Shown here piece after piece: positions 1,447-44,147 of a DNA stretch of 64,000 nt. The notes under the pieces are model-generated. The model ran no database searches, had not been told where the DNA came from, and saw only the letters and a list, made by a program, of their open reading frames with translations. The first letter of the stretch is position 1; every line of letters begins with the position of its first letter. This DNA comes from Staphylococcus phage S6. The stretch lies in the sequence record LC680885.1; one strand, written 5' to 3'. Position numbers and translations under genes: made by a program.

Positions 1447-1585
1447 TGGAAAGCCGTATGAGGCGAAAGTCTCACGTACGGTTTGGTGCAGGGGAAAAGA
1501 GGTACGTTTAGTATACTCTTACCTATTGCAATAACAATTACTTTCGAAGAAGAATGCATACAGTTTAGATGCTTCAACTAGATCA
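1447..1585 (+). ncRNA. GC-rich structured RNA segment, candidate 3' core (P7-P9-like) of a group I intron
   Basis: Hairpin ccgtatgag-gcgaaagt-ctca(cg)tacgg with a GNRA-type loop, followed by ggtgcaggggaaaagaggtacg. Local GC is well above the window average. Confidence 0.4.
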
Positions 1586-38387: not shown

Positions 38388-39119
38388 ATGATTGAAGAAG
38401 CTTTTAAATTGAATTTCATAAGTCTAATATTAAATATACCTTACTTTTTAATATCAATTTACTTATTTTATTATTTTTATACTTACAAGAAAATTAAAAA
38501 TAATAAAGATGATATATACGATGTAGCACCAGTAGCTTTTACAAGTTATTTGAGTATAATAATTATAATTATACTCAAATTATCTACTAATAGTTTATCT
38601 CAATATGGTAATTTGATATATCATCCTTTTAAAATATTTACTTTAATTATAGTAGGTTTGATGATGTATGTTGTACTGGATGCTTCATTATTTATATTTG
38701 ATAAGATGAAAAGCTCATTAAAGATATTCATTGTATTGAATATCTTTTTAATTGCATTATTAATATCTGATTCATTATTGTTTAATATGATTATTATGAT
38801 AGTTATATCAATTCTATTAATTTTGACTTCATTATACTTTACAGTTGATCATTTAGATAGTAAAGATAAATATGTAAAAATAACTTTTTGCACATTCTTT
38901 ACTTTATTCCCTCTATTTTTATCACTGTTAGTTATAAATATGGATGTAATTAAATTTAACTTAATAGATGTTAATACTAATAATAAAATTGATAATATGC
39001 ATTTAGTTATAATTGTGCAAATAATTTTACTAATATGGAACTTAGTAGTAATGATATTCAAAATATTTAATATCAATATATACACCGTTATATCAGAAGT
39101 ATTTAAAAGAAATAAATGA
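38388..39119 (+). CDS. Polytopic membrane protein (~6 TM)
   Basis: SD aaaggagg. Hydrophobic throughout. Confidence 0.6.
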   Translation: MIEEAFKLNFISLILNIPYFLISIYLFYYFYTYKKIKNNKDDIYDVAPVAFTSYLSIIIIIILKLSTNSLSQYGNLIYHPFKIFTLIIVGLMMYVVLDASLFIFDKMKSSLKIFIVLNIFLIALLISDSLLFNMIIMIVISILLILTSLYFTVDHLDSKDKYVKITFCTFFTLFPLFLSLLVINMDVIKFNLIDVNTNNKIDNMHLVIIVQIILLIWNLVVMIFKIFNINIYTVISEVFKRNK

Positions 39120-39123
39120 ATAT

Positions 39124-39176
39124 TAGGATAATGATCAAATTAATGGTCATTATCCTAATATTATTTTCTTTTTTTT
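39124..39176 (+). terminator. Rho-independent terminator
   Basis: Stem taggataatgatca/tggtcattatccta (one G·U) followed by atattattttcttttttttg. Confidence 0.7.
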
Positions 39177-39198
39177 GTAACTACTATTATTTTAGATA

Positions 39199-39208
39199 TA
39201 TATTATAA
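39199..39208 (+). promoter_or_regulatory. TATATTATAA motif
   Basis: Followed by ttATGAAGggagg; no intervening hairpin. Confidence 0.35.
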
Positions 39209-39230
39209 TTATGAAGGGAGGAATATAATA

Positions 39231-39476
39231 ATGATATTTAATATTCTAATAGCAATTGCATATGAGATGCTTGTTTCTTTAGGTTTAGGTGTTTCAGCTT
39301 TTTATATATCTTTATTTTTATTAAGATATATAAAAAATAATATTATCAAGAAAGAAATTAAAAATGAAAATAGAAAGTTATTTTATTTTTCATTATTAAT
39401 AGTTATAATATTTATGTCAATAAAATCATACGTTGATATAAAATTAAGTATTATAGAACAAATATTGAAAATGTAA
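39231..39476 (+). CDS. Small membrane protein
   Basis: SD gaagggagg. Two TM segments. Confidence 0.55.
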   Translation: MIFNILIAIAYEMLVSLGLGVSAFYISLFLLRYIKNNIIKKEIKNENRKLFYFSLLIVIIFMSIKSYVDIKLSIIEQILKM

Positions 39477-39503
39477 AAAGCGTAACATAAGATATTTTAA
39501 TTA

Positions 39504-39513
39504 TATATTATAA
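39504..39513 (+). promoter_or_regulatory. TATATTATAA motif inside the repeated AAAGCGTAAC module
   Basis: aaaagcgtaacataagatattttaattatatattataattatgaag. Confidence 0.35.
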
Positions 39514-39570
39514 TTATGAAGATATAATAATATTAATTATATCTTTAATAAAAATAAAGGAGAAATTAAA

Positions 39571-39849
39571 ATGACAGAATTTGAAAATGAAATTAAAGTA
39601 TCAAAAGAGGAGAAGAAGATTAAAAGATTTATTGATCAAGGTATTGATAATTTATCTGATACTGTGGGAGAGAATATTGAAGGTATTCCATTATCTTTAA
39701 CTGATTATTTTCCTAAAATAAAGAAATTAATTATTAAATTAATTGATCGAGAAGAAAGTGATGAAATTAAAATGACAAATGAATTAGGTGAAGTATTTAA
39801 ATTTAATAGAACTTCACACGATATTTATTTAACATCAACTAAATTTTAA
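39571..39849 (+). CDS. Hypothetical small protein
   Basis: SD aaaggagaaattaaaATG. Confidence 0.55.
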   Translation: MTEFENEIKVSKEEKKIKRFIDQGIDNLSDTVGENIEGIPLSLTDYFPKIKKLIIKLIDREESDEIKMTNELGEVFKFNRTSHDIYLTSTKF

Positions 39850-39895
39850 TGAAAACTTTCTATGATCCAACAATAAAATTAAAGGTGTGGTATGT

Positions 39896-40519
39896 ATGAT
39901 TAAAGTCAATGAGCTATTAACAGAAGTTAAGGAAATAAAAACAAATGACAGTTATACGAAATTAATAAATGAGTATAGGGATATTATTAATGAAGAATAT
40001 ATATCTTATAAACCGTTAAAAGATTATTACAATTTTATTATATATTATCTAGAGAAATCTAGAAATCAAGCATTGGAATCTAACAACTTTAATGAATCCA
40101 ATTTAAATATCAAATTATTAATAGAAGATCTAATGATATTAAAAGATATTGTTAAATCTAATATTTTTGATACTAAAGAAGTAATCAGATCTACTGGGTT
40201 TAAATTAACAAATGGTAGTACATTTGATAGAGTTATCAAATACATTAAAGATAAACTAGATGAATTAATTATAGAAATAAATTCAAATAATTATAAATAT
40301 CAAAATATCTATTTCTATCTACCTGAACTAAATAATCTATTGCATAATACAATTCATATAGAACGTGTTTTAGATAAATATAAGAATAATGTAGATATTA
40401 TTAATATAAATAAATATAATTTATTTGAAATGATGCCTTGTAATGATATTATGGATAAAGATGAATTTTATATAATGGTTAATCATTTATATGATTTAGG
40501 TGTTTTAGAAAAAGCGTAA
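39896..40519 (+). CDS. Hypothetical protein
   Basis: The track starts at GTG 39887; ATG 39896 is also possible. SD-like aaaggtgtgg. Confidence 0.5.
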   Translation: MIKVNELLTEVKEIKTNDSYTKLINEYRDIINEEYISYKPLKDYYNFIIYYLEKSRNQALESNNFNESNLNIKLLIEDLMILKDIVKSNIFDTKEVIRSTGFKLTNGSTFDRVIKYIKDKLDELIIEINSNNYKYQNIYFYLPELNNLLHNTIHIERVLDKYKNNVDIININKYNLFEMMPCNDIMDKDEFYIMVNHLYDLGVLEKA

Positions 40520-40537
40520 CATGTAATAAAATAAGTA

Positions 40538-40547
40538 TATATTATAA
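40538..40547 (+). promoter_or_regulatory. TATATTATAA motif inside the repeated AAAGCGTAAC module
   Basis: Same module as at 39.5 kb. Confidence 0.35.
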
Positions 40548-40606
40548 TTATGAAGAAAGATAAAGTATTAATATCTTTCTAAATAAATCAAATGGAGGAA
40601 TTTAAA

Positions 40607-40777
40607 ATGAAAAAGAATTTATTATTAAAATCAGCAGTGGGATTTGGGTTAGGTATTGTATTAGGTGTAGTAAGTAATAAAATTGATGAAATGGTTATGC
40701 AAAAGGAAATGGAAAAGCAAATCTTTAAAAGAGCTTCAGAAATAACTTTTGAACATCCATTCAATAATCTAAAATAA
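40607..40777 (+). CDS. Small membrane peptide, paralog of 41305..41409 and 42033..42227
   Basis: aaATGGAGGaatttaaaATG: the track start 40592 is the ATG inside the SD. KSAVGFGLGIVLGVV. Confidence 0.5.
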   Translation: MKKNLLLKSAVGFGLGIVLGVVSNKIDEMVMQKEMEKQIFKRASEITFEHPFNNLK

Positions 40778-40858
40778 AGGAGGAAAGAGGATAATTGTTT
40801 TAAAGACCTAATGGACAAGGATCAAGTTCATTAGGTCTATAATTTTCTATGATCCAAA
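40770..40858 (+). repeat. ~88 bp direct repeat, copy 1 (identical to 41402..41489)
   Basis: ctaaaataaaggaggaaagaggataattgttttaaagacctaatggacaaggatcaagttcattaggtctataattttctatgatccaa. Confidence 0.8.
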
Positions 40859-40880
40859 AAATAAAAAGGAGCTAAAATCA

Positions 40881-41195
40881 ATGAATAACAAAACTAAATT
40901 AGCAGAATTAAGAAAAGAATTAAAAATCGTATATTCGGATATACAATTGAGCAAAACAAGTACTATAGAAGAAAGACTTCACAAGAAAAAGGAAAGACTA
41001 ATTAAAGAAATTAATGAAATATTAGAAAAAGATCAAAATGTTTTCGATAGAGAAAAACATATAGCAAGAGTTAAAGATCAGAATAACGATAACATTCACA
41101 AGGGATCAGATGAATTTTCTAAGGCAGGTAGACTCCATAGAAAATATCAGAAGCAAGATAAACACAACATTTTCAATAATCCAGTACAAGATTAA
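40881..41195 (+). CDS. Small basic protein, paralog of 41704..42009 (shared ...KAGRLH...)
   Basis: SD aaaaggagc. Conserved FSKAGRLHRKYQ vs YAKAGRLHQSFQ. Confidence 0.55.
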   Translation: MNNKTKLAELRKELKIVYSDIQLSKTSTIEERLHKKKERLIKEINEILEKDQNVFDREKHIARVKDQNNDNIHKGSDEFSKAGRLHRKYQKQDKHNIFNNPVQD

Positions 41196-41237
41196 AAAGT
41201 TGAATTTGAAAAAGCGTAACGTAAGATATTTTAATTA

Positions 41238-41247
41238 TATATTATAA
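41238..41247 (+). promoter_or_regulatory. TATATTATAA motif inside the repeated AAAGCGTAAC module
   Basis: Same module. Confidence 0.35.
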
Positions 41248-41304
41248 TAATGAAGAAAGAGATTATCATTAACTCTTTCTAATAAATTAAAAGGAGAAAT
41301 TATT

Positions 41305-41409
41305 ATGAAAAACTTAGTATTGAAATTAGTAGCAGGATTTGGATTAGGAATTGTGATGGCAGTTGTTTTAGACAAGATTGAAGAAATGACGTTCTCTAAT
41401 TTAAAATAA
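41305..41409 (+). CDS. Tiny membrane peptide (34 aa), not in the track
   Basis: SD aaaaggagaaattattATG. LVAGFGLGIVMAVV. It ends ...SNLK, inside the 88-bp direct repeat. Confidence 0.4.
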   Translation: MKNLVLKLVAGFGLGIVMAVVLDKIEEMTFSNLK

Positions 41410-41489
41410 AGGAGGAAAGAGGATAATTGTTTTAAAGACCTAATGGACAAGGATCAAGTTCATTAGGTCTATAATTTTCTATGATCCAA
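41402..41489 (+). repeat. ~88 bp direct repeat, copy 2
   Basis: Identical to copy 1. Includes the last codons (...NLK*) of a small TM-peptide gene, a strong SD, a 10 bp-stem hairpin and the TTTCTATGATCCA motif. Confidence 0.8.
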
Positions 41490-41521
41490 ACTAAAACTAA
41501 AAATAAAAAGGAGAAATTAAA

Positions 41522-41698
41522 ATGTTAGAATTAAATGGAATTGAATTTGTAAATGAAAAGGAAATTAAAGAAGAGGAATTATTATTTAATTATTCAGATG
41601 AAGCAAGATATCCATCTGAACAGGCTTATAGAGAAGTAGATTTAATCATTGAGAGCTTCGACAATACAGCTTTCGGATTAAGAAAATGGGGAGTGTAA
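41522..41698 (+). CDS. Small acidic protein (58 aa), not in the track
   Basis: SD aaaaaggagaaattaaaATG. Confidence 0.4.
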   Translation: MLELNGIEFVNEKEIKEEELLFNYSDEARYPSEQAYREVDLIIESFDNTAFGLRKWGV

Positions 41699-41703
41699 TT
41701 AAA

Positions 41704-42009
41704 ATGGTCAGAGAAGAAAAAATCAAACAAATGAAACAAGAATTACAAGCAATTTTAGACAAAGAAATTAGGTTTAATGGTAAACCAATTTCAAATAAAC
41801 AATTTGAGAGAAAATTAGAACTAATGAAACAAATAGAAAAGTTAAAATTTGACATTAGATCAGAAAGATATCTGAGAAATGTCAAAAAGAATAAAATCAC
41901 TGAGTTTAAGGGTAAAAGTGATTATGCGAAAGCAGGAAGACTACATCAATCTTTCCAAAGTAAAGAAGAGCATAAAATATGGAAAGAAGATTTATTAGTA
42001 ATTCAATAA
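41704..42009 (+). CDS. Small basic protein, paralog of 40881..41195
   Basis: The track start 41686 lies inside the upstream ORF. ATG 41704 follows aaaatggggagtg. Confidence 0.5.
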   Translation: MVREEKIKQMKQELQAILDKEIRFNGKPISNKQFERKLELMKQIEKLKFDIRSERYLRNVKKNKITEFKGKSDYAKAGRLHQSFQSKEEHKIWKEDLLVIQ

Positions 42010-42032
42010 TATATTAAATGGAGGAATTTAAA

Positions 42033-42227
42033 ATGAAAAAGATTATTAAATTAAAAACTGAGTATGCATTAATTTTAGGAATGTTAGTTGGGCTATTATT
42101 AGGATTATTAACTATGAATTTCTTTTTAGCGTTAGATATTATGTTCATGACAACTTTAGCATTTGTAGGTATGAATCATTATATCGGTGAAAAAAGAATG
42201 AATAATAGAAAAGGGGAAGTAAATTAA
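42033..42227 (+). CDS. Small membrane peptide (paralog family)
   Basis: aaATGGAGGaatttaaaATG. The track start 42018 is the ATG in the SD. Confidence 0.5.
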   Translation: MKKIIKLKTEYALILGMLVGLLLGLLTMNFFLALDIMFMTTLAFVGMNHYIGEKRMNNRKGEVN

Positions 42228-42228
42228 T

Positions 42229-42423
42229 ATGCAGAATAAAATTAAGATAAAACCATGGATAGTATTTTGGACCGTATTTATTATTGGATTTATAGTTGGA
42301 GAAATTCTAGGTTATGTAGAAGGTAAATCATTGTTTGTAGGTATCGTATCAGCATTTATTTGTTTAGGAATTAATTATATGGTTGGAGAAATTAGAAGAG
42401 ATATTATTAGAAATAGAAAATAA
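42229..42423 (+). CDS. Small membrane peptide
   Basis: taatATG overlaps the upstream stop. Two TM segments. Confidence 0.5.
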   Translation: MQNKIKIKPWIVFWTVFIIGFIVGEILGYVEGKSLFVGIVSAFICLGINYMVGEIRRDIIRNRK

Positions 42424-42456
42424 AAATTAATTAAATTATAAGGAGTTGAATTGGAT

Positions 42457-42564
42457 ATGTTATTAGAAAACTTCATTACAATTATCGTGTTACTTGGCTT
42501 AATGAAATTTACAGGTTGTTTCAAATTTATGAAAGAAATCTGGTCTAACAAAGGTAACAAATAG
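42457..42564 (+). CDS. Tiny hydrophobic peptide (35 aa), not in the track
   Basis: SD aaggagttgaattggatATG. Confidence 0.35.
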   Translation: MLLENFITIIVLLGLMKFTGCFKFMKEIWSNKGNK

Positions 42565-42641
42565 CAATAAAAGAGTGGATTATTTTCTATGATCCACTCT
42601 ACATATTTAAATTAAAAAAAAAACGAAAAGAGGAAATTAAA

Positions 42642-43148
42642 ATGAAAAAATTATTAATGACATTAGCATCAATCGCTTTAATCGCAGTTATCGGAGCAGC
42701 AGGGATATTTGGTTATAGTAGTTTTAAAAGCTTAACAGTCAATAAAGAAGATAGTAAGACTGAAGAAGTATCTAAAAAGAAAGAAGACAAAAAAGAAAAG
42801 AAAGAACAAGAAGAATCAGATAATGTAGAAGTAAATCAACAACAAGATCAAACTCAAGAAGTAAATAATAATGAACGACAAAATCAAACTACAGAAGATA
42901 ATAATACAAATGTACAACAAAATCAACAACAAGAACCAGTAGTTGAAGAGAAAACTCAAGTAACAGATAATGAAGGTAATAATATAGATGATATGGATTC
43001 AGAAGAATTTATTTCTAAATATACGGAAGGAATGGATGAAGAAGAAGCTCAAACAGTAAAAGACATGGCTGAAGAAGATTCAGGATATGAAGATTTCTTA
43101 CGTGGACAAGTAGAAGCTAGACAAAACGGACAAGGCGGAAATTACTAA
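42642..43148 (+). CDS. Membrane-anchored Q/N/E-rich protein, paralog 1 of 3
   Basis: MKKLLMTLASIALIAVIGAAGIFGYSSFK signal anchor, then a low-complexity acidic/Q-rich region. Confidence 0.6.
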   Translation: MKKLLMTLASIALIAVIGAAGIFGYSSFKSLTVNKEDSKTEEVSKKKEDKKEKKEQEESDNVEVNQQQDQTQEVNNNERQNQTTEDNNTNVQQNQQQEPVVEEKTQVTDNEGNNIDDMDSEEFISKYTEGMDEEEAQTVKDMAEEDSGYEDFLRGQVEARQNGQGGNY

Positions 43149-43171
43149 TAAGAAGAAAAGAGTGAAATGAA

Positions 43172-43639
43172 ATGAAAAAAATCTTAAGTATTTTAACAGC
43201 GATAGCTTTAATCACAGTTATCGGAGCAGCAGGAGTATTCGGCTATAGTAGTTTTAAAGAATTAAATAATAGTAAAGATAGTCATAAAGTTGAAACAAGT
43301 AAAAAACAAAAAGAATCAGATGATAAAAATAACACTCAACAACAAGAACAAAATACATCAAAAGAAAACAACAATATCCAACAACAATCAAATGAAGATA
43401 GCCTAACAGAAAATATGGATGAAGAATATAAAAAACAACAGGAAATGTATGAAAGGCAATCAAAAGATGAAGCTCCAGAACCGGATTCTATAATTGGCAA
43501 CCCACCAAAAAATTATGAAACTCCAGAAAAAGATAAAATAACTATAAGTGAGTTAAGAGAAGTTTTAGGCGATGATATTGATGAAAGTAAAATTGATGAA
43601 GCAAAAGCGTCTGGCGAATATATTAATGATGAAGAATAA
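43172..43639 (+). CDS. Membrane-anchored Q/N/E-rich protein, paralog 2 of 3
   Basis: MKKILSILTAIALITVIGAAGVFGYSSFK. Confidence 0.6.
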   Translation: MKKILSILTAIALITVIGAAGVFGYSSFKELNNSKDSHKVETSKKQKESDDKNNTQQQEQNTSKENNNIQQQSNEDSLTENMDEEYKKQQEMYERQSKDEAPEPDSIIGNPPKNYETPEKDKITISELREVLGDDIDESKIDEAKASGEYINDEE

Positions 43640-43670
43640 AAAATAAATAAAAAGAATAGAGGAAAATAAA

Positions 43671-44147
43671 ATGAAAAAATTATTAGTATCATTATCAATC
43701 TTAGCAGTAATTGTAGTATTAGTAGCGGCAGGTGTGTTTGGATATTCAAAATATAAAGAAGTAGAAATGAAACAACAGAATTTAGAAACACAATTAGAAG
43801 AAAAAAATTCCAATGAGCAAACTAATGAAAACGATCAACAACAAGAACAAGCAAATACAAATGAATCTCAAAATCAAGAAAATAGTTCAACAAAAAACAA
43901 TAACGACAATAAACAAAAAGTATCTAGAGACAATGTATTTGACTATGCTTTAGCTGCAGTAAATGAAGTAGGTGACGCTGATTTAATGAAATTCCAAGAA
44001 CCTTCTTACAGTGATGGTGTATGGACAATTGACACTAATAATAAATCTGGTTCAGGATCTAATACTATAAAAGTATACGATGATGGCTGGGTACAGATAT
44101 ATGATGGATCTGGTGAAATAGCTCATGAAACAAAAATAGAACTATAA
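43671..44147 (+). CDS. Membrane-anchored Q/N/E-rich protein, paralog 3 of 3
   Basis: MKKLLVSLSILAVIVVLVAAGVFGYSKYK. Confidence 0.6.
   Translation: MKKLLVSLSILAVIVVLVAAGVFGYSKYKEVEMKQQNLETQLEEKNSNEQTNENDQQQEQANTNESQNQENSSTKNNNDNKQKVSRDNVFDYALAAVNEVGDADLMKFQEPSYSDGVWTIDTNNKSGSGSNTIKVYDDGWVQIYDGSGEIAHETKIEL

Follow-up and report, generated by a model that had tools for sequence, protein, structure and literature searches.

Cis-acting signals that probably double as recombination joints in a hyperplastic early-gene region of an AR9-like Staphylococcus jumbo phage

Staphylococcus phage S6 belongs to the AR9/PBS1-like group of phages, which have uracil DNA and two multisubunit RNA polymerases. In a window of 64,000 nucleotides (nt) from its genome (record LC680885.1) we analyzed a region, positions 39400-42700, in which small gene cassettes lie on one strand and are separated by short conserved cis-signals. 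These signals are an early promoter module and an invariant motif, M, which stands either alone or together with a hairpin. We conclude that this is probably a hyperplastic early-gene region whose cis-signals double as recombination joints: they would organize expression and also supply the homology for duplication, deletion and exchange of cassettes. The region is 99.6% identical to Staphylococcus phage vB_SauM-UFV_DC4 (DC4; 263-kb genome), and eight related genomes show the same architecture, including that of SA1 from S. lentus, where the intergenic element is kept at 80%. An earlier note on this sequence had proposed cassette-wise duplication and recombination at conserved joints. Its proposal is upheld by a weak but significant paralogy of the two units, by a gene order that differs at the modules and by a crossover in phage LY01. 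The same note had asked whether the repeats might be assembly artefacts, which is excluded because the modules recur in eight other independently sequenced phage genomes.

Comparison of the cassette maps of eight phages placed their differences exactly at these modules. LY01 lacks the gene for a 207-amino acid (aa) protein, the promoter module, the membrane peptide gene and the hairpin that follow in DC4, and a single copy of M is left. As the left flank of this copy corresponds to DC4 site 39857 and its right flank to DC4 site 40844, the crossover is placed inside the 13-nt motif. MarsHill and SA1 carry an extra two-gene cassette between two hairpin+M elements, while AH12 lacks the second peptide gene and its hairpin+M element, with the junction in a repeated ribosome-site sequence, AAAAGGAGAAATTA. 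Breakpoints of gained or lost cassettes lie within M, within the hairpin+M element or in shared ribosome-site sequence, and the clear ones fall mostly at M or at such ribosome-site repeats and not at the promoter itself. One event weighs against the proposed role of the modules: the loss in DC4 of a gene resembling MarsHill gp013 is not bounded by any module. A remnant of the 3' end of this gene forms the start of the third promoter module. The modules are thus frequent, but not exclusive, joints.

The region also retains traces of duplication. The two basic proteins with a KAGRLH motif, listed as paralogues in the earlier note, share 37% identity over 41 aa (E = 9e-8). Three membrane peptides with a VGFGLGIV motif had been grouped in the same way; those encoded at 40607 and 41305 are indeed paralogues (67% identity over 27 aa), but the one at 42033 has only the ribosome site and first codons in common with 40607. 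Weak paralogy further links the 207-aa protein to MarsHill gp013 (27% over 157 aa, E = 7e-4). Taken together, these paralogies point to an old tandem duplication of a unit consisting of a protein of about 210 aa, a promoter module, a membrane peptide, a hairpin+M element and a basic protein. The coding parts of the duplicated units have diverged beyond recognition at the nucleotide level; their promoter modules are about 77% alike and their hairpin+M elements 90-100% alike. The two intergenic repeats described as identical are exact over 89 base pairs (bp) in DC4, which is best explained by recent gene conversion, since the two orthologous elements of PALS_2 differ from each other. The likely order of events would be an old tandem duplication, divergence and recent gene conversion at the 89-bp repeats, with later and repeated homologous recombination between short modules reshuffling the cassettes.

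We then turn to the signals themselves. The first class of repeat is, judged by its sequence, the already published early promoter of the AR9-type virion RNA polymerase, TATATTAT-(6N)-G+1. The AR9 promoter, AAATATATATTAT-(6N)-G+1, which the virion RNA polymerase reads, was mapped with differential RNA sequencing and primer extension (Lavysh et al. 2017, PMC5312081), and in MarsHill TATATTAT was reported upstream of 29 genes and equated with it (Korn et al. 2020). All three module copies of the earlier note were found (Table 1). They are 66-73% alike over 95 nt and contain AAAGCGTAAC, whose three exact occurrences here are the only ones in the whole 263-kb genome. The modules had been thought to begin inside the last codons of a gene, which holds for copy 2 (LEKA-stop); copies 1 and 3 start past the stop codon. 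The identity of TATATTAT with the published promoter, and a hairpin beginning at the predicted transcription start, go beyond what that note had seen. Exact copies of TATATTAT stand at four places in the region, each with a G six nt past it, and are preceded by AGATA, AATTA or AAGTA compared with AAATA in the consensus. Across the window, 14 of 14 copies of TATATTATAA lie on the + strand against 5.3 expected, and 11 of these are intergenic; genome-wide, the positions of TATATTAT peak at -80 to -61 relative to start codons. The sequence GTAAC occurs exactly 17 nt upstream of TATATTAT in six cases in the genome, four of them in this region (spans 39176-39206, 39481-39511, 40515-40545 and 41215-41245). 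It may reflect common descent or constitute an extra upstream element, and because the spacing resembles a -35/-10 pair, early promoters with GTAAC might also be read by the host RNA polymerase.

In the three modules the hairpin starts at the predicted +1 G or two nt past it, and the segment from +1 to +30 gives z values of -3.7 to -5.9. Between copies 2 and 3 the stem shows a compensatory change (AAAGAT/ATCTTT against AAAGAG/CTCTTT), and orthologous promoters across the eight phages keep the hairpin with an altered stem sequence. A stable hairpin with its onset at +1 to +4 was found for 19 of 27 strict-consensus early promoters of DC4, compared with 9 of 300 random G positions, and for none of the six annotated early promoters of AR9. 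Further early promoters of the window with such a hairpin are found, for example, at 1901, 16681, 19539, 29368, 37147, 45197 and 50494. No U-tract follows the +1 hairpins, which makes it unlikely that they are terminators. In Bacillus and Staphylococcus, mRNA decay involves the 5' exonuclease RNase J, against which 5' stem-loops are protective; by analogy, we infer that the +1 stem-loop may be a 5'-terminal stabilizer or a mark of early transcripts. These hairpins are candidate protectors of early mRNA in a host with 5'-exonuclease decay.

The remaining two repeat classes, namely the 89-bp repeats and further copies of a 13-mer, have a common invariant core, TTTCTATGATCC, which is motif M. Gathering all occurrences of TCTATGATCC from the region's counterparts in the eight phages, we obtained 30 intergenic sites, 27 of them distinct. 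Over these 27 sites the twelve columns of TTTCTATGATCC are invariant and the flanks variable, and all sites lie on the gene strand, 22-47 nt ahead of a start codon. The 13-mer TTTCTATGATCCA is present exactly on the + strand at four positions, the two copies outside the 89-bp repeats, which had been noted before, being those at 39857 and 42584. With up to two mismatches it matches 20 times in the window, above every shuffle (5.6 +/- 2.4). In the 263-kb DC4 genome M has 12 sites with at most one mismatch, seven of which are intergenic, four in this region and three elsewhere. As intergenic DNA makes up about 6% of the genome, the motif is not found at similar density inside coding sequence, the outcome that would have spoken against it. 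A scan of IMG/VR for ATTTTCTATGATCCA returned single, apparently random matches and no new relatives, and in the literature searched the motif string appeared only in unrelated primer lists.

M occurs in three settings. In (a) it directly follows a stop codon, and no hairpin is present. In (b) it comes five nt past a 13-bp hairpin, in the order stop codon, GGAG, purine-rich tract, hairpin, M. In (c) it makes up the loop and 3' arm of a hairpin with a 9-bp stem, a hairpin that SA1 keeps with other arms (AGGTGGGTC/GATCCACCT). The stem in setting (b) had been given as 10 bp and is in fact 13 bp long. A three-codon TTG-TTT-TAA frame had been seen in the same repeat; it is not conserved in relatives, and we rejected its reading as a conserved mini-open reading frame (ORF). 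In an alignment of 14 elements of type (b) the stem is paired in 98.7% of cells, three pairs are altered on both sides and many G.U pairs lie on the sense strand; selection therefore acts on the structure of the sense transcript. UGAUCC of M can pair with GGAUCA, the conserved loop (95.8% of cells paired), a pairing compatible with a pseudoknot that lies beyond a covariation test because M never varies. The full 89-bp element folds as a single long imperfect hairpin (z = -4.3).

Three intergenic copies of M lie elsewhere in the DC4 genome. At record position 70806 on the minus strand, M lies inside a hairpin and antisense to its neighbours; in PALS_2 a tRNA-Asn gene on the opposite strand stands 13 nt away from its counterpart. 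At the DC4 copy, by comparison, we found no tRNA and no Rfam family match. This hairpin is surrounded by a conserved, G+C-richer and ORF-free stretch of 200 nt (record 70600-70830), a candidate for a small RNA or for what is left of a rearrangement of the tRNA region. At record 89605 M stands between a stop codon and a canonical terminator, an arrangement kept in MarsHill and SA1 but not in Machias. The last copy lies in a very conserved AT-rich divergent region upstream of a RecD-like helicase gene. At this site and at one in SA1, M is 27-35 nt downstream of an early-type promoter with no intervening gene, and the gene behind M is without any other recognizable promoter. The divergent region, which extends for about 340 nt from an early gene to the helicase gene, is 85% identical between MarsHill and SA1, above the neighbouring genes. 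Besides M and the palindrome TTACTTACTAATATAAGTAA it contains one early promoter per strand, and it may be a replication origin or a regulatory hub.

What M does can be read in several ways. Our first choice, held tentatively, is a terminator/promoter-type junction in which M is a minor, non-early promoter. The hairpin together with AUAAUUUUCU would end or attenuate a short early transcript, and a minor, non-early transcription class would recognize M and re-initiate there; both biochemical roles we infer from the sequence. TATG within M would supply T(-1)/G(+1), fitting the T(-1)/purine(+1) start of the non-virion polymerases of jumbo phages, and with this G as +1 the implied 5' untranslated regions (UTRs) would measure 27-52 nt, next to 26-64 nt for AACA-type promoters. 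Several points weigh against a promoter. M lacks AACA at -11 to -8, no polymerase or factor is known to read it, only two classes of promoter occur in AR9, and neither the supplement of transcription start sites for AR9 nor a 50-kb AR9 sample contains an M-like sequence. Neither the copy at 70806 nor the one at 89605 is placed where a promoter would be obvious. In three different hairpin architectures the 3' half of M can pair with a GGAU upstream of it, and this recurrence fits a role at the RNA level at least equally well. The literature searched holds no transcriptome for any Staphylococcus jumbo phage, and transcript starts and ends are accordingly predicted ones.

As for the earlier suggestion that TTTCTATGATCCA may mark a second promoter class, the motif is much too rare for a general class, with seven intergenic copies per genome, and does not fit the late promoter; a minor promoter, a site for a regulator or RNA factor and an attenuator are the candidates that are left. 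The late class of DC4 is AR9-like, since AACA-(6N)-T-purine is concentrated in the interval from -60 to -41 relative to start codons, where 22 of 226 genes have it, compared with 0-4 per other bin, and all 28 late-type sites read AACA-(6N)-TAT. In MarsHill the late promoter was not found by MEME (Korn et al. 2020). M as a late promoter of AR9 type was rejected: if TATG supplies the +1 G, the bases found at -11 to -8 are TAAT, TTAT or AAAA. A host sigma-A promoter was rejected too, as M has no -35 element and the scan showed no enrichment (67 sigma-70-like matches, 69 in shuffles). We dropped a phage sigma factor as the reader of M, the 'Sigma70 factor' annotated in DC4 (UFVDC4_00065) having no Pfam sigma domain at E <= 0.01. 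A link to GATC avoidance or restriction was rejected because GATC is not depleted, with 639 observed and 573 expected from base composition (826 by a Markov estimate). An upstream ORF from the ATG within M was rejected as well, for it has no ribosome site and varies in length and stop position.

Almost as likely as a minor promoter is an RNA-level signal, with M displayed beside or inside a hairpin of polycistronic early transcripts. Its reader would be the ribosome, a regulator that binds RNA or a nuclease that processes as RNase III or RNase Y does, and promoter-proximal cistrons would become independent of distal ones in stability or translation. Of the eight intergenic copies of M examined in DC4 and SA1 sequence, seven share a transcription unit with an early-type promoter upstream of them, and one M site is within a 3' UTR. 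The compensatory changes and sense-strand G.U pairs of the type (b) hairpin, its loop pairing with M and the folding of the whole 89-bp element all favour such a role, as does the pairing of the 3' half of M with upstream GGAU at site (c), at 70806(-) and at the promoter-M site of SA1. An orphan polypurine tract, AAGGAGG, right after the stop codon also fits; it resembles stabilizing Shine-Dalgarno (STAB-SD) sequences and the 5' stabilizers of SP82. UGAUCC of M is moreover complementary to GGAUCA, the 3' tail of 16S rRNA, and early mRNAs of T7 and SP82 carry intercistronic hairpins processed by RNase III. However, the pairings of M have no covariation support, since M never varies, and M has no pairing partner at sites (a) and upstream of the RecD-like gene. 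The 9-bp stem at site (c) is short for RNase III, and no Rfam family matched between 38.5 and 43.5 kb (best sub-threshold score 28 bits, cut-off 55).

It is unlikely that the hairpin and M are simply an intrinsic terminator or an attenuator, one that would stop early transcription once the first small gene of a unit has been read, with M contributing the U-rich tail and its context. Each early promoter of the region is followed by exactly one small gene and then by M, and terminators with conserved sequence motifs are described in the literature for phages of phiKZ type. The type (b) hairpin has a 13-bp stem followed by ATAATTTTCT; with its tail ATAATTTT, it escapes a simple terminator scan only through its 9-nt loop. 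However, sites (a) and upstream of the RecD-like gene have no hairpin, at site (c) the T-run is inside the loop, and invariance continues for 8 nt past the T-run. At the SA1 and RecD-like sites M follows the promoter by about 30 nt, so that the gene behind it would never be expressed, and at record 89605 a separate canonical terminator comes after M.

A still less probable explanation is that a small element, either mobile or of the site-specific recombination type, ends in M and its hairpins; it would resemble an integron attC site or a miniature inverted-repeat transposable element, be moved by a dedicated recombinase and have no regulatory role. Cassettes bounded by M in one orientation, a crossover inside M and an inverted copy elsewhere, beside a tRNA site that varies among phages, would suit such an element. 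Yet no integrase or transposase is encoded in or near the region, where all products are ORFans, and there are neither terminal inverted repeats nor target-site duplications. The other joints are promoter modules or ribosome-site repeats, as expected for general recombination at short homologies, and the invariance of M among phages with diverged flanks argues for a selected function in every copy. M as an attC site of a gene cassette was tried separately; it is a single direct motif, and no recombinase domain is present in the products of the region. Finally, chance AT-rich matches or assembly artefacts can be dismissed: at 24% G+C many short AT-rich matches are expected, as the sigma-70-like matches illustrate, but the shuffle controls, the exact 89-bp identity, eight independently sequenced genomes and the compensatory hairpin changes refute them.

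Table 1. Signals and genes of the region and its edges (window positions, all on the + strand; ORF products are given by length)
Feature	Position	Strand	Remarks
Terminator-like hairpin, strong	39119..39162	+	19-bp stem and T-run; closes upstream gene; left edge of multi-promoter early region
Early promoter	39199..39213	+	TATATTAT from 39199, (6N), predicted +1 G 39213; GTAAC 17 nt upstream; no +1 hairpin
81-aa membrane ORF	39231-39476	+	driven by early promoter at 39199..39213 (predicted)
Promoter module, copy 1	39464..39558	+	AAAGCGTAAC 39477-39486; TATATTAT 39504-39511; predicted +1 G 39518; 5'-terminal hairpin 39518-39546
92-aa acidic ORFan	39571..39849	+	absent from AH12, PB50 and Machias
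Motif M, site (a)	39857..39869	+	9 nt past stop codon, 27 nt ahead of next start; no hairpin
207-aa ORFan (MIKVNELL...)	39896..40519	+	weak paralogue of MarsHill gp013
Promoter module, copy 2	40498..40592	+	AAAGCGTAAC 40511-40520 over codons K-A-stop; TATATTAT 40538-40545; predicted +1 G 40552; hairpin 40554-40580
56-aa membrane peptide (VGFGLGIV)	40607..40777	+	paralogue of 41305 peptide
89-bp exact repeat, copy 1	40770..40858	+	stop codon, polypurine AAGGAGGAAAGAGGA, 13-bp hairpin 40804-40838, ATAAT, M 40844-40856
104-aa basic protein (KAGRLH)	40881..41195	+	pI 9.6; paralogue of 41704 protein
Promoter module, copy 3	41198..41292	+	AAAGCGTAAC 41211-41220; TATATTAT 41238-41245; predicted +1 G 41252; hairpin 41254-41280
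34-aa membrane peptide	41305..41409	+	paralogue of 40607, shortened internally
89-bp exact repeat, copy 2	41402..41490	+	hairpin 41436-41470, M 41476-41488
58-aa acidic ORFan	41522-41698	+	
101-aa basic KAGRLH paralogue	41704-42009	+	
Three small membrane ORFans	42033-42227, 42229-42423, 42457-42564	+	
Motif M, site (c)	42572..42600	+	M 42584-42596 is loop and 3' arm of hairpin AGAGTGGAT/ATCCACTCT
168-aa protein	42642..43148	+	N-terminal membrane anchor, then acidic Q/N/E-rich tail; gene downstream of M site (c)

All genes in the region are annotated as 'hypothetical', and a DNA primase gene lies a few genes upstream. Searches of their products gave sub-threshold matches only in Pfam and, in PHROGs, a match just for the 168-aa membrane protein (42642), to weakly annotated families; by these searches the products of the region are ORFans. 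The counterpart in MarsHill of the hairpin at the left edge is annotated as a terminator. The window and the deposited DC4 record differ in length by 4 nt over 3.3 kb. Beyond M site (c), the genes at 42642, 43172 and 43671 (window 42609-44147) are three tandem paralogues, each encoding a membrane anchor and an acidic Q/N/E-rich tail; they are 67-76% alike over the initial ~140 nt, and phages differ in how many copies they have. Far from the region, an Rfam group II intron match (RF00029) at 1449-1532 (+), with 66 bits against a cut-off of 40, lies close to the gyrase A gene, which has an intein or introns in related phages.

The promoter part of this system is already known. New within the sources searched are the +1 hairpins, the invariant motif and the crossovers at the motif. 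Jumbo phages that have RNA polymerases of their own attract study both as systems for host-independent expression and as candidates for therapy against S. aureus, while their middle and late control and their acquisition of ORFans are poorly known. With a defined motif of 12-14 nt and natural recombinants with crossovers inside it, the region is a compact comparative test bed. Were M a promoter of a new class or an RNA signal, it would add a layer to the two-polymerase scheme of AR9; were it mainly a recombination joint, modular shuffling of the kind mediated by promoter-early stem-loops (PeSLs) would reach an unrelated lineage with a different polymerase. That TTTCTATGATCC is a third regulatory class of AR9-like jumbo phages, either a promoter for a novel polymerase form or specificity factor or a sequence-specific RNA signal on transcripts of the virion polymerase, and at the same time a dedicated exchange point of ORFan cassettes is possible but doubtful. 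If true, and taken with the +1 hairpins that AR9 lacks, it would mean that the Staphylococcus clade evolved its own layer of control over early transcripts.

Each part of the region can be set beside a known system. With the AR9 early promoter it shares the core TATATTAT, a G six nt downstream, an AT-rich upstream part and intergenic placement on the gene strand. It differs in the +1 hairpin, present at 70% of the promoters of the Staphylococcus phages and at 0/6 in AR9, and in the extra GTAAC 17 nt upstream in the promoters of this region. Like the late promoters of AR9 (AACA-(6N)-T-A/G) and phiKZ (T-A-T-G+1), M has TATG with a T before the purine, and its distance to the start codon equals that of the AACA-(6N)-TAT sites of DC4. 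In contrast to them, however, it lacks AACA, has seven intergenic copies and is invariant over 12-14 nt, and a resemblance of four bases is not diagnostic. The hairpin+M element resembles the RNase III hairpins of T7 and SP82 and the STAB-SD of Bacillus in being a long imperfect intercistronic hairpin of polycistronic early transcripts with an orphan, Shine-Dalgarno-like polypurine tract that does not serve initiation. However, the hairpin at site (c) is too short, and the polypurine is upstream of the hairpin rather than downstream.

The closest analogue is the shuffling mediated by PeSLs in T4-type phages. PeSLs are small cassettes of a promoter and a stem-loop that lie in hyperplastic regions beside ORFans, and recombination between them gives indels, replacements and mini-circles (Arbiol et al. 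2010, PMC2839356; Comeau et al. 2014, PMC4122927). The modules described here are likewise short composites of an early promoter and a stable stem-loop, placed right upstream of ORFans in a hyperplastic, variable region with breakpoints at the motif. They too span the gap between one gene's stop codon and the ribosome site of the gene that follows, and they supply the homology through which close relatives come to differ by insertions, deletions and replacements. They differ in their promoter, which belongs to a virion polymerase and not to sigma-70, and in a second, promoter-less joint of hairpin and invariant M that has no counterpart among PeSLs. A further difference counts against the parallel: PeSL stem-loops terminate, whereas the stem-loop here starts at +1, has no U-tract and is probably no terminator. 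Because of its virion-polymerase promoter, its +1 stem-loop without a U-tract and its second joint with an invariant motif, the region is not a member of the PeSL family, but it works like PeSLs.

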